A stretch of 49,030 nt of DNA from Deltaproteobacteria bacterium (GTDB lineage: Bacteria > Myxococcota_A > UBA796 > CAJQPC01). This document shows positions 9,812-24,805 of the stretch, one piece after another (position 1 is the first letter of the stretch; every line of letters begins with the position of its first letter). A program made the translations under genes and the position numbers. The stretch covers positions 1 to 49,030 of the forward strand of contig JADKFE010000010.1 of assembly GCA_016717595.1 (NCBI GenBank). Reading direction: 5' to 3'. Below the pieces are notes generated by a model. The model saw nothing but the letters and a program-made list of their open reading frames with translations. It did not search any database and was not told the origin of the DNA.

Positions 9812-12037
9812 TCAGACGCGCTGGGCGCCTCGGGCGCGGCGCAGGCGATCGGACTCCCCTTCAGCGCGGCGGGCGGCGCGCACCTCGTCCTCCAAGCGGC
9901 GCAGAGCCTCTCCGGCGGCGGAGACCCGGTCTTGCTCGCCGATCAGCTCTTGGCGGGCTTTGCGGGCGGCGCCGCCGATGTCGAGGAGGCGCGCCGCCGT
10001 GGCCGTGAGCTTGGACTCCCAGCGGGCGTGCTCCTCTAAGGTGGCCTCGCGGTCGGCCTTGGCGGCGAGCAGCTCGGGGCGCTCGGTGGGGTCGGGGCGC
10101 TGACCGGCCTGCTCCATCGTCTCGACGCGGCGCAAGCGGGCCTCGATCTGGGCGAGGTCTTGGGCGATGGCCTCGGGGCGCAGCTCTTTGAGCCGACCAT
10201 CGAGGCGATCGGCCTCGGCGGCCAGGTCAGCGGCCTCGGCGCGCAGCTCGACGACGGTGCGGCGTAAGTCAGCCTCGGCGGGGGTGGGCAGCTCGGCCTG
10301 GCCGATCGCCAGCTCTAAGGCGGCGAGGGACTCCTCAACCCGGGCGAGGAGCTGGCCGCCGCGGGTCTTGGGCGGAGGCGGCGCGACCACCGGCGCGGCG
10401 ACGTTCGGCGGCGCAGGGGCGGCGGCGGCAGGTTCAGCGGCGGCGGCGCCGCGCTCCACACGCACCTGGGGGCGGCTGGCGAGCAGCTCGGGCAGACGCT
10501 CGGGGGTGACGTGGGCGCGCAGGTCTCGGCCATAGGCCAAGGGCACCTTGTCGGCGTTGCGCCCGGCGTTGGAGGCGGTCACCATCACGACGACGGAGAT
10601 GAGGATCATCACCGGGAGCGCCGCCATGGCCGAGCCGAAGGTGAGCCCCACGGCGATGGCCCACAACACCCACATCGGCCCCAGCAGGTTGGGCAGGGTG
10701 CGCATCACGCGGTTCACCCGGCCGTCTTCGTCTTCAGCGCGGCGGCGTTTTTTGGCGACGAAGCCCCGGCTCTCGGCCAAGGCGGCGAGGTTATCGACGG
10801 TGTCTTCGCTCACGCCAGAGACGAGGCGGAAGCGGCGCTGGTCGAGCACGGGGCTCACCAACAGGGCGTCGATGGGCAGCCCAGCCCGCAGCGCGACGCC
10901 GCGGGCGAGGAGCTCGGCGTCGGTGATCTCCTTGGACTCCGCCGTCCACTCTTCAGGGAGCTTGGGCAGGCCGAGCTGCACCACCACCTTGTTGATCGCC
11001 TCGGCGGCGTAGCGGGCGCTCGTCTTGCCCGCCCGGGCGCTGCGCCGGGCTTGCCTGCGGCTGGCTTGGCTGGAGTGGCGAAGCTCCAGCTCAAAGCGGC
11101 CTTCAGGCAAGGCCAACGGCGCGGGCTCTAAGGTGTAGCTGGGCTGGGGTGGCGGCGGCGGCGGGGGCTCGTCTTTGGGCGGCGCGCGGCGGTTCTGAGC
11201 CCGCGGCGGCGGGGCGACGATGCGCCCACGAAGGGCCTCGGCGACCTCAGCGGCGCCTTGGGGCCGCTCGTCTGGGGAGAGGCGCAAGAGCGCGTGGATG
11301 ATGGCGCAGAGGTCATCCGGCAGCTCAGGGCGCAGGCTGGCGAGGGGCTCGACCTCGCCGGAGAGCTGGCGTTTGAGCACGGCGGCGGCGTTGGGCCCGG
11401 CGAAGGGCGCCCGGCCTGAAGCGGCGTAGTACAGCACCGTGCCCAAGGAGTAGAGGTCGCTGCGGGGGTCGGCGCGCTCGCCGTCGTAGACCTCGGGGGC
11501 GGCGTGCCCGGCGGTGCCCAAGGCCCCGGTGTGCCGGGTGGACTGCCACTGCTCTAGCCGGGCGAGGCCAAAGTCGGTGAGCGTCGCCACGCCCGCGTCG
11601 TCGATCATCACGTTCGCCGGGGTGATGTCGCGGTGCAGCACGCCGGCGCGGTGGGCGGCGGCGAGCACGTCGGCCAGCCGCGCGCCGATGGCCCGCAGCG
11701 CCGTGCCGCCGATGGGGCCTTCAGCGGCCACCCGCTCGGAGAGGGTGCGGCCGGGGTGGTACGGCATCGACAAGGCGAGGTGCCCGTCGAGCTCGTGCAG
11801 CTCTTGGGCGAGCAGCGCGCCCTCATGTTTGATGAGCCCCGCCGTCATCACCTCGCGGCGCAGGCGCTCTCGGGTGGAGGCGTCGCCGACGAGGTGGGCG
11901 TGGAGGATCTTCAGCGCGACCCGGGCGCCGCGCACCCGATCTTCAGCCAGCCAGACCGTCGCCATGCCCCCACGGCCCAGCTCACCGATGAGCGTGAACC
12001 GCTCACCGAGCACCGCGCCCCGGGCCAAGGCGCTCAA
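9812..12037 (-). CDS. Membrane-anchored Ser/Thr protein kinase with Pro-rich linker, TM segment and C-terminal coiled coil
   Basis: Hanks kinase motifs GELGRGGMATVWLA, VALK, HRDITPANVMI, DFG. Hydrophobic VLWAIAVGLTFGSAMAALPVMILISVV. Ends 15 nt before hcrC-like start. Confidence 0.8.
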   Translation of the reverse strand: MSALARGAVLGERFTLIGELGRGGMATVWLAEDRVRGARVALKILHAHLVGDASTRERLRREVMTAGLIKHEGALLAQELHELDGHLALSMPYHPGRTLSERVAAEGPIGGTALRAIGARLADVLAAAHRAGVLHRDITPANVMIDDAGVATLTDFGLARLEQWQSTRHTGALGTAGHAAPEVYDGERADPRSDLYSLGTVLYYAASGRAPFAGPNAAAVLKRQLSGEVEPLASLRPELPDDLCAIIHALLRLSPDERPQGAAEVAEALRGRIVAPPPRAQNRRAPPKDEPPPPPPPQPSYTLEPAPLALPEGRFELELRHSSQASRRQARRSARAGKTSARYAAEAINKVVVQLGLPKLPEEWTAESKEITDAELLARGVALRAGLPIDALLVSPVLDQRRFRLVSGVSEDTVDNLAALAESRGFVAKKRRRAEDEDGRVNRVMRTLPNLLGPMWVLWAIAVGLTFGSAMAALPVMILISVVVMVTASNAGRNADKVPLAYGRDLRAHVTPERLPELLASRPQVRVERGAAAAEPAAAAPAPPNVAAPVVAPPPPKTRGGQLLARVEESLAALELAIGQAELPTPAEADLRRTVVELRAEAADLAAEADRLDGRLKELRPEAIAQDLAQIEARLRRVETMEQAGQRPDPTERPELLAAKADREATLEEHARWESKLTATAARLLDIGGAARKARQELIGEQDRVSAAGEALRRLEDEVRAARRAEGESDRLRRARGAQRV

Positions 12038-13314: not shown

Positions 13315-15126
13315 GTGGGCGACCTCTTGGGGCCGATGCCCCCGGCCACGACGCTTCGGGATGTAGACGTTCACCCGGAGTACATCCGGCTGCGCTTCAC
13401 CACCGACCGCGACTTCATCGTTGAGCTGACCCCAAGCCGTGACGGCGCCTCGCCGGTGTGCAGCGGCGGCGGCGCCGATCTCTACGTGCGCCTGGACCTC
13501 GACGCCGATCAAGAGAGCTTCGACTGGGAGCCCCTGCCGCCCATCGTCGATCAGCTCTGCGCCCGGATGGTGGACCACCCGCCGCGGTTCCCGACCTCGG
13601 AGAAGGTGTTGGCCCCCGTCGCGCCGCCGCCGGATCCCGAGCGCCCGGCGCTGCCGTTTCGACCGATGCACGTCGTCGGCGTCCTCTGGGCCGTGGCGGT
13701 CCTCGCCGCCCTGCCGCGGGCGCCCTTGGCCTGGGGGGTGGGCCTTCTCGCGCTCTTGATCCGCCTGGGGCTCTCCCCGCGCTGGATCCTCGTCGGCGGC
13801 GACGCGGCCTATGAGCGCCTGCTCGACGCGAGGGGGCGCGGCGACTCCAACCCCTACTACGGCGACGGCTGGCAAGGGTTGATGGGCCTCGTGTACACGC
13901 TCCTGGGCGAGCCCAAGACGACGGACTGGGTTCACCTCACGAACCTCGGCTTCTCGGCCTTGACCGTGGTGGCGCTCGTGGGGCTGATCTCGGCCTTGGG
14001 GGGCAGCCCCCTCGCCGCGGGCCTCGCCGGGCTCGTGTTGGCCGCGGCCCCGCTGCCGGTGCGGCTGGCGGCCACAGAGACCGACTTTGTGCTCGTCGGG
14101 CTCGTGCAGGTGCTCGCGCTCTACGGCGCGGCGCGTGGGGATCGCCGCGGGGCGGCCCTCGCGGCGCTCTCTGTGGGCCTCTCCGTTCACCTGCGGCCCC
14201 TGGGCGGCGCCTTCGCGCTTCTGCCCTTGGGCATGCTCGCCTGGCGGCGCTCGGCCTGGGCCGTCGTGTTGGGCCTGGGGCTCTGCGCCTGGCGCGCGGT
14301 GGAGCTGCTGCCGCTCGTGCGTGAGGGCAGCGGCGTGGGGGTCATCCCCTTCGGTCGGCTTCTGGAGACGGACTTCTGGGTCAAGCGCCTCAACCCCTTG
14401 GGCCGCGCCCCGGCGCTGCACCTCAGCCCCTTGTGGTCGCCGTTGGCGTTGCCGCTCCTCGCCGTGGCCGCGGTGCAGCTCTCCAAGCCCGAGACCCGCC
14501 GCGCCTGGATCTGGCCCTTGGGCTTGGGCGTCGTGCTCAGCGAGCTGCCGTACCTGCCGAAGACCTCTCCCCTTGGCGATCCCCTGCGGTTTTTGCTCCC
14601 GGCGACGGCGATGTGGGCGGGGCTCGCGGGGTTTGGCGCGGCCTTGGCCTGGGAGGGCGGCGCCAAGGCCCGCCTGGTCCTGGCGGTGGCGGCCCTGAGC
14701 TTCGTCCCCCCATGGCTCTCAGGCCAGCCGCGCTGGACGTGGCAGGTTGAGCACCTGGCCTTCGTCGAGGCCACCCGACTCGCCCCCGAAGGCGCCGAGG
14801 TGCTCTTTGACCCGGCCTTTGACGAGAACGGCAAGATCAGGATGTGGCTCAACACCCGGGGCGGGGCGCGGTGGCGGCCTTGGGCGCTGGGAGAGACCCC
14901 CGCCGAGGGCGCCTTTGTTTACCTCGGCAGCGCCGATCACCACCGGCGTTTAGAGGCCGGCGGCGCCGGGCCGAGCTTGGCCCAAGGCTGCGCGCTCACG
15001 CCGCTGACCACGATGGAGCTGCCGCCCGAGACCGACGGCTGGATTGAGCTCGGCGACGCGCCGATCCCCGCCGGGCTCTACCGGGTCGGGGCCTGCGGCC
15101 AGGGCTCAGGCTCCCCAAACCCCTGA
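13315..15126 (+). CDS. Polytopic integral membrane protein, possible GT-C (PMT/ArnT-like) glycosyltransferase
   Basis: 603 aa, a ~110-aa soluble N-terminus followed by more than 10 hydrophobic helices. The start may be GTG at 13316. Confidence 0.5.
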   Translation: MGDLLGPMPPATTLRDVDVHPEYIRLRFTTDRDFIVELTPSRDGASPVCSGGGADLYVRLDLDADQESFDWEPLPPIVDQLCARMVDHPPRFPTSEKVLAPVAPPPDPERPALPFRPMHVVGVLWAVAVLAALPRAPLAWGVGLLALLIRLGLSPRWILVGGDAAYERLLDARGRGDSNPYYGDGWQGLMGLVYTLLGEPKTTDWVHLTNLGFSALTVVALVGLISALGGSPLAAGLAGLVLAAAPLPVRLAATETDFVLVGLVQVLALYGAARGDRRGAALAALSVGLSVHLRPLGGAFALLPLGMLAWRRSAWAVVLGLGLCAWRAVELLPLVREGSGVGVIPFGRLLETDFWVKRLNPLGRAPALHLSPLWSPLALPLLAVAAVQLSKPETRRAWIWPLGLGVVLSELPYLPKTSPLGDPLRFLLPATAMWAGLAGFGAALAWEGGAKARLVLAVAALSFVPPWLSGQPRWTWQVEHLAFVEATRLAPEGAEVLFDPAFDENGKIRMWLNTRGGARWRPWALGETPAEGAFVYLGSADHHRRLEAGGAGPSLAQGCALTPLTTMELPPETDGWIELGDAPIPAGLYRVGACGQGSGSPNP

Positions 15127-15276: not shown

Positions 15277-15378
15277 ATGTCTGAATGGAGAGATCGTCTG
15301 CTGCGCTGGCTCGACGGGCTGCTCTTTTTCCCCGAGCCAGAGCCCGCCCGCGCTGAGGCCCGGCGGCGCCGTCGATGA
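15277..15378 (+). CDS. Small ORF (33 aa, MSEWRDRLLRWLDGLLFFPEPEPARAEARRRRR) translationally coupled to the downstream gene
   Basis: GGAGGT sits 6 nt upstream of the ATG. The stop overlaps the next ATG as ATGA. Below the ORF-track length cutoff. Confidence 0.3.
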   Translation: MSEWRDRLLRWLDGLLFFPEPEPARAEARRRRR

Positions 15379-15935
15379 ACCCCGCCTCGCGTGCTCGCGC
15401 AAGGGTCGCGCGGGTGACCGCCGCCCCCCACGACCCGCCCCTGCCCCGCCACTTCCACCGCATCGAGGCCCGGGGCCATGTGGTGTACTGCCTGAGCCCC
15501 TTGGCCCCCGCGGAGCTCGTCCAGGCCGGGGGGCTGCCCCGGGAGGCGATCCTCGGCGTCACCGACCGCGACGTCGGGGACTGGGCTTGGGGCCTTCGCC
15601 CAAACCAGCTCTTCATGGACCTCTTGACCCGCCTGCTCACCGAGCACGCGGAGCTTGAGCCGACGCTCACCCAGGCCGCCTTGGCGCTGCGGGTGGGCGT
15701 GCTGGAGCTCTGGGACGGCCGCGTCGGCTTCTCCCAGCGCGGTGAAGAGGATCTGCTCGGCTGCTTTCAGGTGCGTGAGGGTCGGCTGATGCCGCGCTCG
15801 TTCAACCCCAACCGGAGCTACACCTTGGTGACTGAGCGAGGCGCCATGCGGCTGCCCGCGCGACTTCAGGCGGCTCTGCTCGCCGAGCTGCGGTCGCTGC
15901 GGGTCTTGTGGCCTGGGCCCTCGACGACGCTCTGA
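15375..15935 (+). CDS. Hypothetical protein
   Basis: 186-aa ORF with coding-like composition. Confidence 0.4.
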   Translation: MNPASRARARVARVTAAPHDPPLPRHFHRIEARGHVVYCLSPLAPAELVQAGGLPREAILGVTDRDVGDWAWGLRPNQLFMDLLTRLLTEHAELEPTLTQAALALRVGVLELWDGRVGFSQRGEEDLLGCFQVREGRLMPRSFNPNRSYTLVTERGAMRLPARLQAALLAELRSLRVLWPGPSTTL

Positions 15936-15989
15936 GGCCACCGCGCCGAGGGTCATTTGCGCGGCGTCGGGTTCTCCCCGGCGTCGCGC

Positions 15990-16943
15990 TCAGCTCTCTG
16001 GGGCGTCGCTGCCGTTGTGGACGTTCACGATGGTGAGCTGCTCGACGGCGATGCGCACCTGGCCGCTGAGGCGGCGGCGCTCAAACAGCCGCGCGGCGCC
16101 CTCTACGCCCGCTTGGGCCACCTGCTCCCGGGCGCGGAAGAGGTGCAGGGTGAGCAGGCCGGGCTCTAAGGACAACATCCGCGAGAGCTCATCGGCGTAA
16201 CGCCAGCCCAGCTCCGCGGGGCGAACCCCGGCGGCGAGATCCTCTAGCCGCGCCCGGGCCAAGGCCAAGGTCACGAGGTGATGCACCCGAGAGCTGAGCA
16301 CGATGGCGCCGCCCCGGTGCTTGATCTCCACATCGACGTGCTCTTGATCTTGGCTCACGCGGAGGGTGAGGGCGATGGTCTCTAAGCGTGGGCGCAGAGA
16401 GGTGTCCCAGGTGGTGGGCAGCTCAGCGCTTCGCGGCGCGACGGGCAAGATGAGGCGCCAAGACTCGTCTCCTAAGACGAGGCGCTGGCCATCGAGCGCC
16501 TCGGACTCCAGGCCCTCGTGCTCGACGATCCAGTGGCCGTCGTTGCCTTCGTAGACGATGGCGAGCATCCCTTCCGCGCTGGGCAGGCTGAGGATCTCGG
16601 CCTCGGACACCCGCAGGAGCTGATCGGCCTCTCGGACCGCCGCCGCGCCTGGGGGGCCGTCGTGGGCGAGCACGAAGCCGCGGTGGGGGCCGAAGCGCAC
16701 GCTGACGCCGGCGCTGAGCCCGCGACCGCGGCCGCTCTCCAGGCGCTCGCCGTCTACAAAAGTGCCGTTTCGACTGCCAAGATCACGCAGTTGCCACTCT
16801 TTGCCGGTCCAGCGTAAAGCGGCGTGCTCAGCGCTGATCTGGCGATCGTCGATGCGCACGGCGCAGTGGCCCGCGCGGCCGATGAGCGTGCGCGCGCCGA
16901 GGGCGATCAGGGCGTGGTCGTCGTCGGATCGGAGAATTCCCAT
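15990..16943 (-). CDS. FHA-domain protein
   Basis: N-terminal FHA signature LIGRAGHCAVRIDDRQISAEHAALRW...LRDLGSRNGTFVDG. Confidence 0.75.
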   Translation of the reverse strand: MGILRSDDDHALIALGARTLIGRAGHCAVRIDDRQISAEHAALRWTGKEWQLRDLGSRNGTFVDGERLESGRGRGLSAGVSVRFGPHRGFVLAHDGPPGAAAVREADQLLRVSEAEILSLPSAEGMLAIVYEGNDGHWIVEHEGLESEALDGQRLVLGDESWRLILPVAPRSAELPTTWDTSLRPRLETIALTLRVSQDQEHVDVEIKHRGGAIVLSSRVHHLVTLALARARLEDLAAGVRPAELGWRYADELSRMLSLEPGLLTLHLFRAREQVAQAGVEGAARLFERRRLSGQVRIAVEQLTIVNVHNGSDAPES

Positions 16944-17130
16944 AGGCGGGAACGTAGCACGCTAGGTCACTCTGAACGCCCCCAACAGACGCCCTTGAGG
17001 GCCTGAACCAATCAAAGTCCGCACGATACCCGCCGAAATCAATTGAAAGAGAGGCGGCGAAGCGCCTGATCTATGCTGCGCTAGGTTCGCGCGGCGCGTG
17101 ACCCTGCGACCCCCTCACGGAGAATGACTG

Positions 17131-18604
17131 ATGTCCGGCAACACCTATGTGGTCCTGATTGGTGTCAACGAGTACCCCAAGCTTGGGGCGGGCGCCTCGC
17201 TCAAGGGCTCCTGCAACGACATGCGCCACTGGCTCCGCTTCGCCCGGGTGAGCCTCGGGGTGCCCGGCGAGCAGGTTCAGCTCCTCACCCACCCGGCCCT
17301 TGAGGGCGAAGACGTGCGGCTGCCCAAGGGCCACCACCGCGGCGCGAGCTTGGCCGAGGCGAACGGGGCGATCGACGCCCTCATCCATTGGCTGCAAGAG
17401 AACCCCACGGGCACCGGGCTCATCGTGTACTCCGGCCACGGCGGCCACATCAACCCCGGCGACGACCCCAACGCCACGGACTTTGACGGCGACCGCCTCG
17501 CCTTGGGCCTCAGCGACGCGGGAGATCACCGACGGCACCCTCCGCGGCGCCCTCGTCGTTCAGCAGCTTGACCTGCGCCTCGCCGCCTTGGGCTTGAACG
17601 AGCGCGTGACCTTGGTGATCGACGCCTGCTATGGCGACCTCAACGTGCAGCGTTTTGACCGGGAGCTGATCACCGCCGAGCCCCAGCCCGACGCCACGAC
17701 CGGCCTGCGGGTGCTGCTCTCCACCGCCGTCGGCGCGGCCAGCTACGAGGCCTACATCGCCGGTCAGTGGCAGAGCGCCTACTCCTTCGCGCTCCTCACC
17801 TTGCTCAGCCAGTGGGGCAACGCCCAGGTGGGCGGCGTTCACATCGTCCGGGCGAGCCACCGCGAGCTGACCTTCCGGGCGCGTGAGCTGCTCAACGTGC
17901 TCGGCTACACCGACCAGGCCCCGGCCTTCGCGGGGGCGGCGCGGGCGCTGGACGCCCCGTTCAACAACCCGTCGATCTTTGAGGTGCCGGTGAGGCCCTC
18001 GTGGGTGCCGGACGGCAACCGAAAGATCAAGGAGCTGGGCGGAGAGTCTGACGACCTGGGCGTCTGGACGTTGAAGACCGGCAGCACCATCCTCGCGACG
18101 GGGCTGGTGAACAACTCCGGCGCGGCGGTGAGCTTCAACGGCGGCGGCTCGACCATCCAGAACGGCAAGGCGATGTGGTACCTCCGCAGCACCGGGGCGC
18201 CGCAGAGCTTTGGCAGCCTCACGATGGAGTGGCTGGCGCAGACCGCCAGCGGCGGCTCGATCTCGTGGAACGTTCCCTCCAACCTCACTTATGCCGAGAC
18301 CGAGGACTACGCGCCGTCGATGACGACGATCACCACGGCCCCGGCGGGCACCTCCTTCGGCAACTTCAGCATCAACGACGGCAACAGCGACCCCAAGAGC
18401 ATGTGGGTGTCCGTCGAGGTGACCTCCAACGGCGCGGGCAGCTACAAGGTCAACACCCTCTCGTTCACCGCGACGAGCAGCGTCACGCCCTACCAAGTCA
18501 CCCCGTTGCCCCCGCCCGGCTCAAGCTCGGGGAGCTGGACCAAGAACCAGTCCAACATCCCCTTCACCGTCGGCGTGACCTACTCCTCCAACACCCTCGG
18601 CTGA
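17131..18604 (+). CDS. Caspase-like (peptidase C14) protease with ~300-aa beta-rich C-terminal domain; split by +1 indel near 17519-17522
   Basis: YVVLIGVNEYP...GSCNDM...LIVYSGHGGH (His) in the first ORF. The catalytic Cys motif VTLVIDACYGD appears only in the second ORF's frame. Junction ...LSDAG|EITDGTL. Confidence 0.65.
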
Positions 18605-21083
18605 GGAACGGGCCACACCACCCGCAGCCCCATGGTCAGAAAGCGGCGCTCAGGGGTGTTGCCGAAGCGGGTGGCGAGGCGCTGGGTCATCGGGGGGGAG
18701 CCAAAAAAGCCCCCCCGCACCGCGCGGTGGGTGCCTGCCTCTGGGATATCCACCGCTCGCCCAGCCTGAACTGGCCCTCGCACCGACCACCAGTTGCGGC
18801 ACCAAGTGCGGGCGTTTCCGGCGAGGTCACGCACGCCGTAGGGGCTCTCGTCCGCCTCAAACTCCCCGACCGAGAGCAGGCCGGGCGGCGAAGGAACGGA
18901 GCCCAACACCGCGACCAGCGTGGCTCTAGCTCCCGGCCCCAAGGGGTGTACCGCCCGTCCACACCGCGCCCGGCCTTCTCGATCTCAAGCTCGTTGGGCA
19001 GGTGTCCGCCCATCCAAGCGGCGGCGCGCGCGGCGGCGTCCCACGAGATCGCCGTCACCGGATGATTGACCTCCCCGGGACGGCCGAGCACCACACGGTC
19101 CCCGCTGCGCACGAGATACTGGTCTTTTATGCTGACCCAGGGCCAACAACTCTCCACCCCCGCCTCATCCCCAGCGGCGATGAGCGCCTCCAAAAACGCC
19201 GCGTACTCCCCCAAGGTCACCGGGAAACGCCCCAAGACGAAGCCGTCTACCCACACCCGCTGCCGGGGCAGGCTGTCGGCGGCGAAGGGGTCTCCGCCGA
19301 CGATGCAGTAGCCCGGCGGGATGTAGACCTGGTCGTCACGAAGCTCGCCGGGCTCGGGGATCACGATGAGCGCGGGCTCACCCCCCTCGGGAGGCACGCC
19401 GTCCCAGCGCCCGGCGCGCTCCATGAGCACGGGGTAACGAACGGTGACGCCGTCGGCCTCCAGGGTGACGAGCCAAGATCCCCGGGGCACGGTCACCTCA
19501 CGCAAGGGCGTCACGCCGAGGCGCCGCTCGGGCTCGGGCACGAGGCGACGACCCTGCTCGACGAAGCGGTGCAGCCAGGCGACGGCGGGCCGGGACGTGC
19601 GGATCGACAGCGCGCCGTCGCCCTTGAGGTAGGCCGCGTGTCGCCCGCGGTCGTGGCTCGCGAGCAGCAGCTCCGCCCGCTGCGTCGCCAACGGATCAAG
19701 CTGGCGATCGGCGCGCTCGAGCTCGTCGCGGTAGTGGTCGGCGAGGAGCGCGTGGGCCTCGGGAAGCTCGGGATCCCGGTTGAGCGCGGCGCGGAGATCC
19801 TGATGCCAGGCGACCTCTCGTAGGGTCACCTCGGACTCTAAGGCGGCGGCGCGGTCCTGCATCTCCCAGATGGGCAGCTTGGACTCGACGGGCGCTTCAG
19901 CGCTCAACGACTCCAAGAGCGAGGCGGCGTGGGCCCGAAGCGCCTCGGCCTCCCGCTGGAGCTTGAGGATCCCCGGGCGCTGGGCCTCGGCGCGGCGCGT
20001 CTGGGCGAGGGCCTCGGCGCGGCGCAACGAGCCGTCGAGCCACAACGAGAGCGCCTCGGCCATCGCGCCGGCGTCGGGGTAGCGGTGAATGGGGTCGGGC
20101 ATCAGCGCCCGGCCGCAGATGTGGCGCAGCTCCGGGGGGAGCTCCGCGCGCTCGATGGCCTCGGGCCAGCGCGGCGGGTCGGAGACGAGGCGCCGCCAGA
20201 TGAGCTTGGGGTCGCCCTCCAGGGGGCCTCGACCGCACAGGACGCTGTGCAGCACGGCGCCCAGCCCGTACACGTCCGAGGCTGGCCCCACCTGATCGTG
20301 CTGGCCCCGCGCCTGCTCTGGCGACATAAACGCCGGGGTGCCCAGCACCGCGCCGCCCAAGGTGACGCCCTCGTTCTCCCAGACCGGCGCCCCGGCGAAG
20401 GGCGGCAGCTCCGGCGCGCCGATCCACCGCGCCAGGCCCCAGTCCATCACCCGCACCTCACCGAAGCGGCCCACCATGAGGTTCGCGGGCTTGAGGTCGC
20501 GGTGCAGCACCCCGCGGCTGTGGGCGTACCCGACGGCGTCGCAGATGCTTCGCACCAGGGTGACGAGGCGGTGAACCACGTCGGGGCCCACGGCCGGGCC
20601 GGTGATCATCTCGCCCAGCGTCTTGCCATCCACCAAGGTCATCGTGAACCAGAGGCGCCCGTCAAGAAGCTCTCCGCGGTCCATCACCGAGACGACGCCG
20701 GGGTGCTGCAGCCGCGCCGTGGTCGCGATCTCCCCCAGAAACCTCGCCCGCGCGGCGGCGCTCTCCAGGAGCTCCCAGCCGAGCACCTTCATCGCCACAG
20801 GCACCCGCAGCTTCCGATCCCAGGCCCGGCGAACCTCGCCCATGCCGCCCCGGGCGATGAGCCCGAGATCGTGGTACCGCGCCTCGGGCGACTCAAAGGC
20901 CGCCACGGCCGCGGGCTCCCCGTCTGGGGTCCAGGTGGTCTCGTCGTGCATGATGAATGCTACAGCGCGGAGGGATCCCCGGTCAAGGCGGAGGCGCTGC
21001 CGCGCCCTTGATGGCCCAGGCGGCGATTGACGCCGGGGGGTGGCGGCGGGCGCCTCGCCGGGTGAGAGTACAGCGTGCCTCAC
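18580..21083 (-). CDS. Ser/Thr protein kinase fused to a C-terminal formylglycine-generating-enzyme (FGE/SUMF1) domain; frameshift near 18937-18947
   Basis: Kinase motifs GGMGEVRRA, AMK, HRDLKPANLMV, DWG. FGE-like block YTPWG...SPYGVRDLAGNARTWC...RAVRGGFF...GLRVVW continues in another frame at a cccc/gggg run. Confidence 0.7.
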
Positions 21084-21100
21084 CTCCTCTGGAGCCGCTG

Positions 21101-21712
21101 ATGTCGATCCCGGTCCCCCTTCGTTGTGATTGTGGCGCTGTTGCCGGGGAGATCACCGTGAGCCCCGGCGCCGGCAACCACTGCGTCTGTTTCTGCGACG
21201 ACTGCCAGGCCTTCGCCGCCGCCTTGGGCCGCGAGGACGTGCTCGACGCCTGGGGCGGCACCGACATCTACCAGACCGCCCCTGCGCGTCTGCGCATCAC
21301 CCAAGGTCAAGACGAGCTGCGCGCCCTGCGCCTCAACCCCAAGGGCCTCGTGCGCTGGTACACCGCCTGCTGCAAGACGCCCGTGGGCAACATGATGGCC
21401 ACGCCCCGCTCCCCCTTCGTCGGCGTCATCAGCCGCTTCATCGCTCTGGACGCCGAGGCCCGCGACGCGGCCGTCGGCCCGGTGACCTCCCACGTCATGG
21501 GGCGCTTCGCCAAAGGCGGCTGCCCGCCCCACGCCCACCCCAAGGTGCCGCTCTCGGCGATGCCCGGCATCGCCAAGGTGCTGCTGCGCAACATCGTCAC
21601 CGGCGGCCACAGCCCCTCGCCGTTCATCGTCGATGGCGCCTGGCGGGTTGAGCCCGAGGTGCTGAGCCCCGAGGCCCGGGCCAAGCTCAGCCCAGGCGCG
21701 CCCACGCCTTGA
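21101..21712 (+). CDS. Cys-rich hypothetical protein (GFA/CENP-V-like Zn-binding fold suspected)
   Basis: MSIPVPLRCDCGAVAGEI...NHCVCFCDDCQAF pattern. GGAG sits upstream of the ATG. Confidence 0.45.
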   Translation: MSIPVPLRCDCGAVAGEITVSPGAGNHCVCFCDDCQAFAAALGREDVLDAWGGTDIYQTAPARLRITQGQDELRALRLNPKGLVRWYTACCKTPVGNMMATPRSPFVGVISRFIALDAEARDAAVGPVTSHVMGRFAKGGCPPHAHPKVPLSAMPGIAKVLLRNIVTGGHSPSPFIVDGAWRVEPEVLSPEARAKLSPGAPTP

Positions 21713-21728: not shown

Positions 21729-22724
21729 CTACTCCGGCGCCTCTCCCCGGCGGCGCCCGCGGGGGGCCGCGCCGACGTGCCGCCGATACGCGCGCCGAAA
21801 CGCCGCGGCGTCCGCGTAGCCCACACGCTCGGCGACGTCCTCCACCGAGGCCTGGGTGGTCTCCAGCAGGTGCGCGGCGTGGGCGACGCGGATGCGCTGC
21901 ACGAAGCGCAGCGGCGTCAGCCCGACGCTCCCCTGCACACGCCGGGCGAGGGTGCGCGGCGACATGCCCGCCGCCCGCGCCAGCTCATCCAGCCCGATCT
22001 GCCGCCCGAGGTTGGCCACGACCAGCTCCTCGACACGTTTGAGCGCGGGGTCATAGGTCGAGAGGTGGTCGAGCACCATGTACCGGCCCTGGGCGGGGCG
22101 CGCGTCGAGCACGAGGTACTGGGCGGCGAGGTGGCCCACCGCCGGGGACGCCACCCGCGAGACCACGGCCAGCACAAGATCGGCGTGGGCGAAGGCCGCC
22201 CCCGCGGTCAGCGTGGCGCCGCTCTCCACCACCATCCGGTCGGCGCGCAGATCCACCAACGGGAACCGTCGTTTAAACGCCGGGATCAGCCACCAGGTCG
22301 TCGTCGCGCTCGCGCCGTCGAGCAGGCCCGCCGCCCCCAGAAAAAACGTCGCCGAGCACGAGGCGGCCACCGTGGCGCCGCGGGCGTGGGCGGCCTGCAG
22401 CGCGGCGAGGACCCGCCGCACGTCGGGCCGCGCGAGGGCCCGGTCCACGGCGCCGAGCGTGGGGGTGAACACGCCAGGCACGACGACGACGTCACCGGGG
22501 CCGAGCAGCTCGGGCTCAAACGCGCCGTCTACGGCCACGGGGCGGCCCAAGAGCGAGGTGACCGGCCCGCCGTCGGCGGAGACGACACGCTGGGTGAGGG
22601 CGCGGGACGAGCAGGGGCTCGGGGCGAGCCCGGCGCGGACGAGGCGCTGGGCGGCGCCCACGATGTCGAGGCCAAGGCCAAGCGCCCCCTCCAGCACGTC
22701 ATTCAGCGCGAGATGCACGATCAT
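21729..22724 (-). CDS. GlxA-family transcriptional regulator (DJ-1/PfpI domain + AraC HTH)
   Basis: C-terminal AraC-type HTH (LDELARAAGMSPRTLARRV...FRRAYRRHVG). N-terminal class-I glutamine-amidotransferase-like fold. Confidence 0.75.
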   Translation of the reverse strand: MIVHLALNDVLEGALGLGLDIVGAAQRLVRAGLAPSPCSSRALTQRVVSADGGPVTSLLGRPVAVDGAFEPELLGPGDVVVVPGVFTPTLGAVDRALARPDVRRVLAALQAAHARGATVAASCSATFFLGAAGLLDGASATTTWWLIPAFKRRFPLVDLRADRMVVESGATLTAGAAFAHADLVLAVVSRVASPAVGHLAAQYLVLDARPAQGRYMVLDHLSTYDPALKRVEELVVANLGRQIGLDELARAAGMSPRTLARRVQGSVGLTPLRFVQRIRVAHAAHLLETTQASVEDVAERVGYADAAAFRRAYRRHVGAAPRGRRRGEAPE

Positions 22725-22843
22725 GGCGGCGACCTCCGGGCCGGAAGGGTCATACGCCAGCGCTCGAGGTTTGGCAAGAACAGACCGATCATCGTCAATC
22801 CCGCCAATGGTCGTGGCGCGGCGCCGCCCCTACACTGTCCCCC

Positions 22844-23686
22844 ATGAACGACGACCCCCTCGACGACTTCTCCCGCCGCGCCATCACCCTCCAGTCGGTG
22901 GAGCGCGCCGTGTACGTCGCCGCCCCACCGGGCGACGGCGTCTTCCCCGCGGTGATCGTGCTCGCGGAGCTCCCCGGCATCAGCCCCCACGTCGCCCGCT
23001 TCGCCCGCTGGGTGCGGGACGCGGGGTTCTGCGTGTACATGCCCTCCCTGTTCGGGAGAGACGGCGCGTGGCCGGAGACGGCCGCCGGGACGCAGGTGCT
23101 GCGGGCGGCCTGCGTCAGCGCCGAGCTTCGGGCCCTCGGCGCCGGCCGGTCGAGCCCGGTGACGAGCTGGCTTGGCGCCCTGGCCCGCCTCGCCCACGCA
23201 GAGCGCGGCGGCCCCGGCGTCGGCGCCGTCGGCATGTGCCTCACGGGCAACTTCGCGCTCTCGATGATGCTGGAGCCCACGATGTTGGCCCCGGTCCTCT
23301 GCCAGCCCTCCTTGCCCCTCGATGATCCCGCGGGGCTCAACATCGCGCCCGAGGAGCTGGCGACGGTGCGCGCGCGCCTGGAGGCCGAGGACCTCACCGT
23401 GCGCGCCTACCGCTTCGAGGGTGACCGCTTCTGTACAGCCCAGCGCTTCGCCGCGTACCAGGCGGCCCTGGGGCCCCGCTTCGAGCCCCGGGTGCTGCCG
23501 AGCGCCGCCGCCTCACCCACCCCGCCCCCGTTCTTTCGCGACGTCGTGGCCTGCCCGCACAGCGTCGTGACCGCCCACCTCATCGACGCCGAGGGGGAGC
23601 CCACCCGGGCCGCCCGCGACGAGATCCTGTCGTTCTTGGCCGCGCGGCTGCGCCCCGCCGCGCTGGAGGAGACCCCCCATGCCTGA
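22844..23686 (+). CDS. Dienelactone hydrolase family protein
   Basis: Alpha/beta-hydrolase with Cys nucleophile elbow GMCLTGNFAL. Confidence 0.65.
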   Translation: MNDDPLDDFSRRAITLQSVERAVYVAAPPGDGVFPAVIVLAELPGISPHVARFARWVRDAGFCVYMPSLFGRDGAWPETAAGTQVLRAACVSAELRALGAGRSSPVTSWLGALARLAHAERGGPGVGAVGMCLTGNFALSMMLEPTMLAPVLCQPSLPLDDPAGLNIAPEELATVRARLEAEDLTVRAYRFEGDRFCTAQRFAAYQAALGPRFEPRVLPSAAASPTPPPFFRDVVACPHSVVTAHLIDAEGEPTRAARDEILSFLAARLRPAALEETPHA

Positions 23687-24332
23687 GTCACCCGTCGTCA
23701 TCATCGGCCGCAGCAGCTCCCACTTCACCCGCGTCGCCACCCTGTTCGCCGCCGAGCTCGGCCTGCCCTGGACCCTGGAGGTGGTCCCCCGCCTGCTCAG
23801 CCACGACCCCGCGGACTTCGGCGGCCACCCCGCCCTCAAGCTCCCGACGCTCATCACCCAAGGGGCGCCCGTCTACGGCGCGGAGAACATCTGCCGCAAG
23901 CTCACCGCCCTCGCCGGGCGCGCCGGAGACCCAACCCTCGTGCTGCCCGAGCACGTCCACGACGACACCGCCCGGAACGCCCAGGAGCTTATCTGGGTGG
24001 CGATGAGCGCCCAGGTCTCGATGCGCCTGTTGAAGCCCGGGGAGGAGCCGCCCACACCGTACCTGCTCAAGACCCAGGCCGGGCTCCGGGGCGCGCTGGC
24101 CTGGCTCGACGCGCGCCTCGACGACACCCTCGCCGCCCTGCCCACGCCGCGTCAGGTGAGCGTGCTAGAGGTCACCCTCTTGTGCCTCGTCGATCACCTG
24201 CGCTTTCTCCCCACCTTCCCCCTCGACGCCTACCCCCGCCTGTTGGCCTTCGCCGACGCCCAGGGCCAACGCGAGTCCGCCCAGCGCACCGTCTTTCATT
24301 TTGACCCCCGCCCGCCCAGAGATCCCCGATGA
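23679..24332 (+). CDS. Glutathione S-transferase-like protein
   Basis: Thioredoxin-like N-terminus VVIIGRSSSHFTRV with a helical C-terminus. Its start overlaps the previous stop. Confidence 0.55.
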   Translation: MPESPVVIIGRSSSHFTRVATLFAAELGLPWTLEVVPRLLSHDPADFGGHPALKLPTLITQGAPVYGAENICRKLTALAGRAGDPTLVLPEHVHDDTARNAQELIWVAMSAQVSMRLLKPGEEPPTPYLLKTQAGLRGALAWLDARLDDTLAALPTPRQVSVLEVTLLCLVDHLRFLPTFPLDAYPRLLAFADAQGQRESAQRTVFHFDPRPPRDPR

Positions 24333-24805
24333 AGCCCCTCACCCTCCCCGCCCTCGACCCCGCCACCGTCACGCCGCGCGCGGGCTCGGGCTACCCAGAG
24401 CCCTTCCGCTCCCGGGTGCTCCCCCGCGAGAAGCGCGCGCTGGGCGACGCCCTCGGCCTCACCCGCTTCGGCGTGAACCTCACGACCCTCGCCCCGGGGC
24501 GCGAGTCCTCAATCCGCCATCACCACTCCCACGAGGACGAGCTCGTCTACGTCTTGGAGGGTGAGCTGGTGCTGCGCACCGACGCCGGAGAGCAGCGCCT
24601 CACCGCGGGCATGTGCGCGGGCTTCCCGGCGGGATCTGGCGACGCTCACCAGCTCGTGAACCGCGGCGACGCCCCCGCCCGATTCTTAGAGATCGGCAGC
24701 CGCGACCCCGACGACGCCGTCGAGTACCCCGACGACGACCTCGCCGTCCACAAAGACGCCACGGGCGCCTACGTGTTCACCCGCCGCGACGGCTCCTCGC
24801 CCTGA
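24329..24805 (+). CDS. Cupin-domain protein
   Basis: HHHSHEDELVYVLEGE...GDAH cupin motifs. ATGA overlap with the GST-like gene. Confidence 0.65.
   Translation: MKPLTLPALDPATVTPRAGSGYPEPFRSRVLPREKRALGDALGLTRFGVNLTTLAPGRESSIRHHHSHEDELVYVLEGELVLRTDAGEQRLTAGMCAGFPAGSGDAHQLVNRGDAPARFLEIGSRDPDDAVEYPDDDLAVHKDATGAYVFTRRDGSSP

Follow-up and report, generated by a model that had tools for sequence, protein, structure and literature searches.

The transcription factor EmbR of Mycobacterium tuberculosis combines OmpR-like DNA-binding, BTAD and FHA domains; its gene lies beside pknH, and the FHA domain is needed for phosphorylation by PknH (PMC9239209). For FGS, a role as an intracellular sensor of lectin fold, in association with caspase, kinase and FHA domains, has been put forward (PMC8195603). 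Metacaspase-FGE-sulfatase fusions provide a third precedent and account for 33 of 671 bacterial metacaspases (PMC3501461). Here we describe a three-gene locus that touches on all of these, in a 49,030-nt stretch of a Deltaproteobacteria bacterium (GTDB Myxococcota_A; assembly GCA_016717595.1, contig JADKFE010000010.1, positions 1–49,030 of the forward strand), hereafter the window. It encodes a putative FHA-beta-winged-helix regulator (15990–16943, minus strand; 317 aa, from the open reading frame (ORF) map, the Pfam FHA match and an AlphaFold2 (AF2) model) and a caspase-like protease of the C14, orthocaspase type (17131–18604, plus strand; 490 aa once one G is removed from the GGG run at 17520–17522). 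The third product joins a Hanks kinase, a helical/beta middle region and an FGE-like domain of the FGS type with C-type-lectin fold (18580–20951, minus strand; 790 aa once one C is restored at about 18908). Comparative sequence evidence strongly supports a single functional module made up of these genes, because the trio is co-conserved and because the C14 domain keeps its His and Cys after frame correction.

As in the PknH-EmbR pair, a Ser/Thr kinase is found with an adjacent FHA-containing factor of predicted OmpR type. The domain order is reversed relative to EmbR, here with the FHA domain at the N-terminus and the winged helix at the C-terminus. Nor does the protein belong to the EmbR/SARP group: it has no BTAD match and no helical middle domain, with a beta domain in that place. 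By analogy, the FHA protein would work like EmbR from outside the EmbR family. Whereas PknH is a membrane sensor, the kinase here is cytoplasmic and carries an FGE-like C-terminal domain, and a caspase-like protease belongs to the module.

With the FGS conflict systems (Kaur, Burroughs, Iyer and Aravind 2020/2021), known mainly from multicellular-type bacteria such as Myxococcota, the locus shares a non-catalytic intracellular FGE-like domain in the company of caspase, Ser/Thr kinase and FHA domains. It differs in having no STAND/NACHT NTPase, no MoxR-vWA ternary core and no effector-associated adaptor, and in fusing the kinase directly to FGS. There is also no diversity-generating retroelement (DGR), the FGS domain is not hypervariable, and the set includes a predicted winged-helix transcription factor. 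No STAND/NACHT or MoxR-vWA gene was found among the conserved neighbours; lineage L027 alone had a VIT-vWA gene upstream. The metacaspase-FGE-sulfatase fusions (Asplund-Samuelsson et al. 2012) likewise couple a C14 protease with a His/Cys dyad to an FGE-sulfatase domain, but here the genes are separate and tail-to-tail, the FGE-like domain is fused to the kinase, and the protease carries an unrelated C-terminal beta domain. These fusions and the proposed sensor role of FGS together provide an independent link between caspase and FGE domains.

The protease resembles bacterial orthocaspases and type I metacaspases (C14B) in its YSGHG and D-A-C motifs and in a Pfam C14 score above cut-off. It differs from them in that its subfamily is very divergent, with its own PDxxRxxxQL linker and EYW-motif beta domain. 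The trio matched none of the defence systems listed in PADLOC-DB 2.0. The searched literature held no description of the trio or of the FHA-beta-winged-helix architecture, an absence that is not proof.

Gene order and co-conservation

Neighbourhoods were compared in the caspase-family lineages with usable flanking DNA, ten in number (the window clade, L006, L012, L013, L016, L017, L024, L025, L027 and L029), and caspase identity fell as low as about 25%. The kinase-FGE gene was convergent to the caspase gene in all ten, mostly with overlapping stops. The FHA-winged-helix gene was found in seven of the eight lineages in which that side was visible, in four positions or orientations. In the window clade it stands first, on the minus strand, followed by the caspase gene (plus) and the kinase gene (minus). 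The order in L006 is caspase (plus), kinase (minus) and FHA (minus), and L012 is the same with a 481-aa gene between the kinase and FHA genes. L013, L016, L017 and L027 have caspase (plus), kinase (minus) and FHA (plus). The contigs of L024 and L025 end after the caspase (plus) and kinase (minus) genes. In L029 the caspase gene (plus) is followed by a weak-kinase-FGE gene (minus), with no FHA gene; a 212-aa gene in the FHA position there proved unrelated to the FHA family.

The window clade and L006, L012 and L013 had no neighbours in common beyond the trio, and the Pfam content of the flanks differed among the remaining loci as well. The preliminary description of this DNA, made from the letters of the window, had offered gene-neighbourhood conservation as its own check; the trio is kept together in related and in distant genomes. 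Two couplings emerge from this comparison: a general one between the FHA-winged-helix protein and a Ser/Thr kinase, and a module-specific one between the caspase and the kinase-borne FGE-like domain.

The three-gene layout, as first described, agreed with the ORF map and with the Pfam domains. The divergent FHA/caspase intergenic region (16944–17130) had been called AT-rich and 188 bp long: its GC content is indeed low (61% against 70% for the window, within the lowest 3.3% of 187-bp windows), and its length is 187 bp. Several blocks within it are kept clade-wide in a six-genome alignment, namely GAACCAATCAAAGTCC, CGAAATCAATTGAAA, TGATCTATGCT and a GGAG Shine-Dalgarno element. At the other end, the convergent overlap of about 25 nt between the caspase and kinase-FGE genes was recovered from the ORF map as exactly 25 nt (18580–18604), with no terminator-like site found at the overlap. 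Convergent, mostly overlapping 3' ends were also seen in L002, L006, L012, L016, L027 and L029. No transmembrane-like segment was found in any of the proteins, and the module is therefore taken as cytoplasmic.

Domains of the three proteins

The frame-corrected protease matched Pfam Peptidase_C14 (PF00656) over aa 7–232 with 32.7 bits against a cut-off of 21.4; the match was weak or absent in several distant family members. His103 (codon 17437–17439, plus strand; motif YSGHGG) and Cys166 (codon 17627–17629, plus strand; motif IDACYG) were invariant in three alignments; across 45 diverse family members Cys166 was again invariant and His103 at least 90% conserved. The dyad (SGHG/DACY) was likewise invariant in 12 relatives. 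The presence of this pair after frame correction, left as a check in the preliminary description, was thus borne out. The surroundings of the two catalytic residues, YSGHG and D-A-C, follow the metacaspase/orthocaspase pattern. An exhaustive profile search of 1.84 billion representatives with a limit of E ≤ 1e-3 returned 387 caspase-family relatives, mostly of 450–530 aa, and 199 of them reached E ≤ 1e-10. A 12-sequence caspase scan of metagenomes recovered four loci, and a word-indexed protein search with a seven-sequence caspase profile gave almost nothing new among the matches listed (8000 candidates). The protein belongs to a discrete, very divergent subfamily. An AF2 model from a six-sequence alignment was unusable (predicted local distance difference test (pLDDT) 42), although its beta/alpha alternation is compatible with a caspase/hemoglobinase fold. 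No caspase-family member was found in viral contigs, and a phage-borne origin was rejected.

Comparison of family motifs placed the linker PDGNRKIKEL (family PDxxRxxxQ/E-L) and the following beta domain, rich in Ser, Thr, Gly and Asn, at 18008–18604 (plus strand). The domain itself spans aa 293–490 after the conserved linker and carries an (E)(Y/M)W motif. Its composition is as originally reported, and its size is about 200 aa against the roughly 300 aa then given. It had been said to resemble nothing recognisable, and Pfam searches at E ≤ 10, Pfam searches with individual members and a search of PDB sequences with a 25-sequence profile all agreed, returning only noise (Shiga toxin B, Big; E > 0.004). 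Identity between lineages was 20–30% for this domain, 28–52% for the protease domain and about 40–60% for the kinase, FGE and FHA parts. The C-terminal domain of the caspase-like protein is the fastest-evolving part of the module.

Kinase and FGE-sulfatase domains were found by Pfam in one polypeptide. The kinase domain (20208–20876, minus strand; Pkinase PF00069, E = 4.9e-30) has an ARGGMGEV sequence as its GxGxxG-like loop, the VAMK Lys, HRDLKPAN, DWG and GTPAFMSPE, all conserved in nine orthologues. DWG stands for the usual DFG, with Asp kept and Phe replaced by Trp, and the domain is of the Hanks type. The FGE-sulfatase-like domain (18610–19337, minus strand; PF03781, E = 1.3e-30) covers nearly the whole profile and matched human FGE at E = 6e-15. 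In the alignment with human FGE, the MCHRSYC loop bearing Cys336 and Cys341 is replaced by GSPP, a gap and MTQ, without Cys. The catalytic Cys pair was absent from all nine orthologues as well, and its loss in the window and in these orthologues makes a catalytic FGE enzyme unlikely. The label FGE/SUMF1 given at the outset therefore holds for the fold profile and fails for the enzyme. Most likely, judging by its sequence, the domain is a lectin-fold binding or sensor domain of the FGS type. Its identity between lineages (38–63%) is on par with that of the kinase domain. The window contains no repeat of the FGE-coding region, and no reverse-transcriptase match was found among the called neighbours. 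Diversification by a DGR was rejected, given the lack of a template repeat in the window and a domain that is not hypervariable.

The kinase gene most likely starts at ATG 20951, which gives 790 aa as in its relatives. The GTG at 21083 proposed earlier is disfavoured by the length of the relatives and by the position of the promoter. The latter is a sigma-70-like element, TTGACC-18-TAGCAT (20957–20986, minus strand), that ends 5 nt before the kinase ATG. It was the sole promoter-like site in 15900–21200 (mean of 0.1 in shuffled sequences) and is kept in L001, L009 and L002. Because the promoter ends 5 nt before the ATG, the kinase-FGE mRNA is probably leaderless.

The FHA domain lies at aa 1–95 of the regulator (16659–16943, minus strand), with a Pfam match over aa 19–85 at E = 1.9e-17. 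It has the phospho-threonine-binding residues G22 R23, S37, H40 and N59 G60 T61; the corresponding GR, SxxH and NG residues are conserved, and the 11-strand beta-sandwich expected of an FHA domain is present as well. A middle all-beta domain follows (aa ~100–165; 16449–16646, minus strand), modelled by AF2 as strands over 101–165 at pLDDT above 90 and matching neither Pfam nor PDB sequences. The C-terminal unit (aa ~185–307; 16023–16391, minus strand) is predicted as an OmpR/PhoB-type winged helix: on an alignment of homologues, AF2 (pLDDT 92, predicted TM-score (pTM) 0.86) gave a beta sheet, three helices and a beta-hairpin wing, the arrangement expected of that fold. Conserved arginines fall in helix 3 (FRAREQ) and in the wing (ERRRLSGQ).

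A search with the C-terminal 220 aa of the FHA protein gave 37 homologues of one architecture, each about 300 aa long and with its FHA domain at the N-terminus. Only one of 36 family members matched Trans_reg_C (PF00486; E = 0.038), and the window protein gave no match. An hhalign comparison of the family with the E. coli OmpR DNA-binding domain was not significant, and Foldseek with the full-length model against the PDB found FHA-domain matches only. On the model alone, then, the C-terminus is a winged helix of the OmpR/PhoB type with predicted DNA binding. The preliminary description had found this region unrecognisable, which is true of its sequence, whereas the model gives it a fold.

FHA-winged-helix homologues also adjoin other Ser/Thr kinases at caspase-free loci. 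At L019, the homologue lies beside a Pkinase-TPR gene, with no caspase. In Delftia sp. PS-11 (L014, CP181346.1; 8001–8945) and in L021 (2244–3191) it directly follows a YcaO gene. The Delftia homologue is accompanied by an LCM methyltransferase, a PF27793 protein and a 1342-aa kinase/cyclase/AAA_16 protein of the thiazole/oxazole-modified microcin (TOMM) type. From this gene context, the family seems to serve kinase-controlled clusters for ribosomally synthesized and post-translationally modified peptides (RiPPs) too. Upstream of the FHA-winged-helix genes in L006, L012, L013, L017, L020 and L027, a TAnnnT-like hexamer was seen 7–12 nt before the start codon. This suggests that many of these mRNAs in other lineages may be leaderless too.

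Proposed circuit and its alternatives

We lean, with confidence only a little above even, towards a self-contained cytoplasmic three-gene module in which a kinase sensor acts on the FHA-winged-helix regulator and the caspase is the effector. The Hanks kinase would be the sensor-transmitter, its FGE-like domain binding a ligand or a protein partner and so switching on autophosphorylation. The FHA domain of the regulator would dock on phospho-threonine and its OmpR/PhoB-type winged helix would bind DNA. In this way the signal would alter transcription, probably from the promoters of the module itself, and the 187-bp divergent region may be the common control region for the FHA and caspase genes in the window clade. 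The output would be the orthocaspase-like protease, whose gene always lies tail-to-tail with that for kinase-FGE. Substrates or partners are probably picked by the fast-evolving C-terminal beta domain of the protease, and autoprocessing may take place at the conserved Arg of the PDxxRxxxQL linker. For all of these, we infer the partners, the DNA binding, the direction of control and the cell-fate or anti-invader role.

Several observations weigh against this circuit. L029 does without an FHA gene, and its kinase domain is weak or truncated. The FHA gene adjoins the kinase gene and not the caspase gene in most lineages, which makes transcriptional control of the caspase just one possibility among others. 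Inspection by eye revealed no operator motif common to lineages upstream of caspase or FHA genes. The C-terminal domain of the caspase is without a usable fold model. Finally, if the frameshifts present in the window were real, the module would be dead in this strain.

An anti-invader or abortive-infection system is a tentative alternative, and concerns the biological role in a way compatible with the proposed wiring. The FGE-like domain would sense a phage or foreign molecule, the kinase would fire, the caspase would kill or arrest the cell, and the FHA protein would amplify expression. FGS, caspase, Ser/Thr kinase and FHA domains recur in predicted conflict systems of multicellular bacteria (PMC7159879, PMC8195603), and sensors of FGE-like type are present in defence STANDs (PMC13581612). 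The three genes travel together among unrelated contexts, and sequence change is much faster in the caspase, above all in its C-terminal domain, than in the kinase and FHA proteins. Some loci also have PDDEXK/AAA, AbiEii/helix-turn-helix (HTH), transposase or RHS genes beside them. Set against this, neither the caspase nor the FHA protein matched PADLOC-DB 2.0, and the kinase gave only generic kinase-domain matches (PD-T4-6, mad6, MkoA). The FGE-like domain is not hypervariable and has no DGR template repeat in the window, and the caspase family is missing from viral contigs. In the window the locus is surrounded by ordinary genes of metabolism and housekeeping, and its synteny is kept throughout the clade.

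A purely post-translational arrangement, the model of the preliminary description, has the kinase mark the caspase or itself and the FHA protein read the mark and gate the activity or localisation of the protease. All three domains are intact and co-conserved, FHA domains dock proteins (the GarA and EmbR structures were matched), and the Ser/Thr-rich C-terminal domain of the caspase offers many potential phospho-sites. That domain is, however, poorly conserved, so no conserved phospho-site is evident. Because of its predicted winged-helix fold and its pairing with kinases at caspase-free loci, the FHA protein looks like the transcription-factor partner of the kinase, by analogy with EmbR, and not like a direct gate on the protease. 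The gating role is probably wrong, and we consider the post-translational model unlikely.

Similarly unlikely, in our estimate, is that the caspase and the FGE-like domain form the functional pair, with the lectin fold binding the caspase linker, its C-terminal domain or a cleavage product. In that case the kinase would answer to proteolysis, with the protease at the input of the circuit and transcription at its output. Fusions of metacaspase and FGE-sulfatase domains are common, which favours such a pair by Rosetta-stone logic (PMC3501461). The two genes are also the invariant tail-to-tail core of the locus while the FHA gene moves or is lost, and the good conservation of the FGE domain is what an endogenous partner would lead one to expect. 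On the other hand, what the domain would have to recognise in the caspase is either short (the PDxxRxxxQL linker) or fast-evolving.

The proposed kinase-to-regulator circuit can also be extended, speculatively and with a good deal less confidence, to an NTPase-free cell-fate or immunity circuit. A kinase-lectin receptor would replace the STAND/apoptosome-type switch and drive an FHA-winged-helix factor together with an orthocaspase executioner. The tail-to-tail overlap might be an antisense safety catch on the protease. If true, this would be a kinase to transcription-factor-plus-caspase pathway reminiscent of eukaryotic death signalling.

Integrity, surroundings and significance of the module

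In the ORF map, the caspase-like gene appears as two plus-strand frames (17131–17571 and 17300–18604) and the kinase-FGE gene as two minus-strand frames (18687–21083 and 18580–18942). The interruption of the caspase gene, already suspected in the preliminary description, is real in the window sequence. A five-genome alignment placed it as a window-specific +1 insertion in the GGG run at 17520–17522, where relatives have GG (window GCGGGAG, four relatives GCGGAG). Removal of the extra G gives the 490-aa protein, equal in length to the intact, 99%-identical P0001. The kinase-FGE gene contains a second frameshift that had gone unreported, a window-specific 1-bp deletion at 18906–18910 (minus strand; window CC, relatives CCC, in the five-genome alignment). 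One C is missing at about 18908 (window CACCGCG against CACCCGCG in four relatives), and the orthologue consensus across the site reads PWGRELEP-RWSRVLGS.

The near-identical locus L001 (GCA_016706815.1, JADJIW010000040.1) aligned with 7130–28623 of the window at 98.3% identity, with 30 gap openings over 21.5 kb. Its caspase gene is intact and its kinase gene has two other private 1-bp homopolymer indels. Both genes are uninterrupted in the L023 contig (96–99% identical; caspase 97%) and in all more distant relatives. Both window frameshifts are very probably assembly errors and the module probably intact, because they are private 1-bp homopolymer indels that differ between assemblies and are absent in L023. 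The window and L001 look like one species, and in both assemblies private homopolymer indels fall inside module genes. Given these differences, other apparent frameshifts in the window are to be distrusted.

We consider it quite improbable that the locus is instead a decaying pseudogene pair, with both frameshifts real and the protease and kinase-FGE protein inactivated. Both genes are interrupted in the window, and the kinase-FGE gene is likewise split in L001. Yet the indels differ per assembly and all lie in homopolymer runs, the gap frequency at this identity is typical of indel-prone assemblies, L023 and every other relative are intact, and further disabling changes are absent. That the three genes are chance neighbours with no functional link, as the abundance of kinases and FHA proteins in Myxococcota and a second Hanks kinase 4 kb away might suggest, is refuted by the neighbourhood comparison, with the same three families together in at least seven lineages of differing gene orders and surroundings.

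The second Hanks-type kinase (9812–12037, minus strand; 741 aa), separated from the FHA gene by about 4 kb, is syntenic in the window clade only and stands outside the conserved module. Just past the FHA gene, on its 3' side, lie genes for a 603-aa hydrophobic protein (13315–15126, plus strand) and a 186-aa protein (15375–15935, plus strand), the latter convergent with the FHA gene; both are without a Pfam match and are conserved in the clade only. On the kinase side, AraC/DJ-1 regulator, dienelactone hydrolase, GST-like and cupin genes (21729–24800) lie between DUF6151 and DEAD-box helicase genes, as they do in L001. All four are missing at that position in L002 (80–86% identical), and the segment is therefore a small variable island beside the module. 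In L006 (14903–18540, minus strand) and L012 (5916–9703, plus strand), a right-handed beta-helix protein of 799–849 aa and a 412-aa zincin-like protein (M43/M12 motif) travel with the trio. Their genes flank it on one side in L006 and on the other in L012, and the two proteins may be accessory components.

In bacteria, caspase-like proteases are increasingly seen as executioners, both in immunity and in programmed cell death. The locus offers a compact, portable and conserved case in which such a protease appears hard-wired to a eukaryote-like kinase with a lectin-fold sensor and to a putative transcription factor. As a module of only three soluble proteins with familiar individual parts, it is testable. 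The combination of FHA, beta domain and OmpR-type winged helix would be a previously undescribed architecture for a phospho-threonine-reading transcription factor. That FHA-winged-helix proteins also occur beside kinases at RiPP (YcaO) loci hints at a broader class of Ser/Thr kinases paired one-to-one with transcription factors, which would functionally parallel two-component systems.

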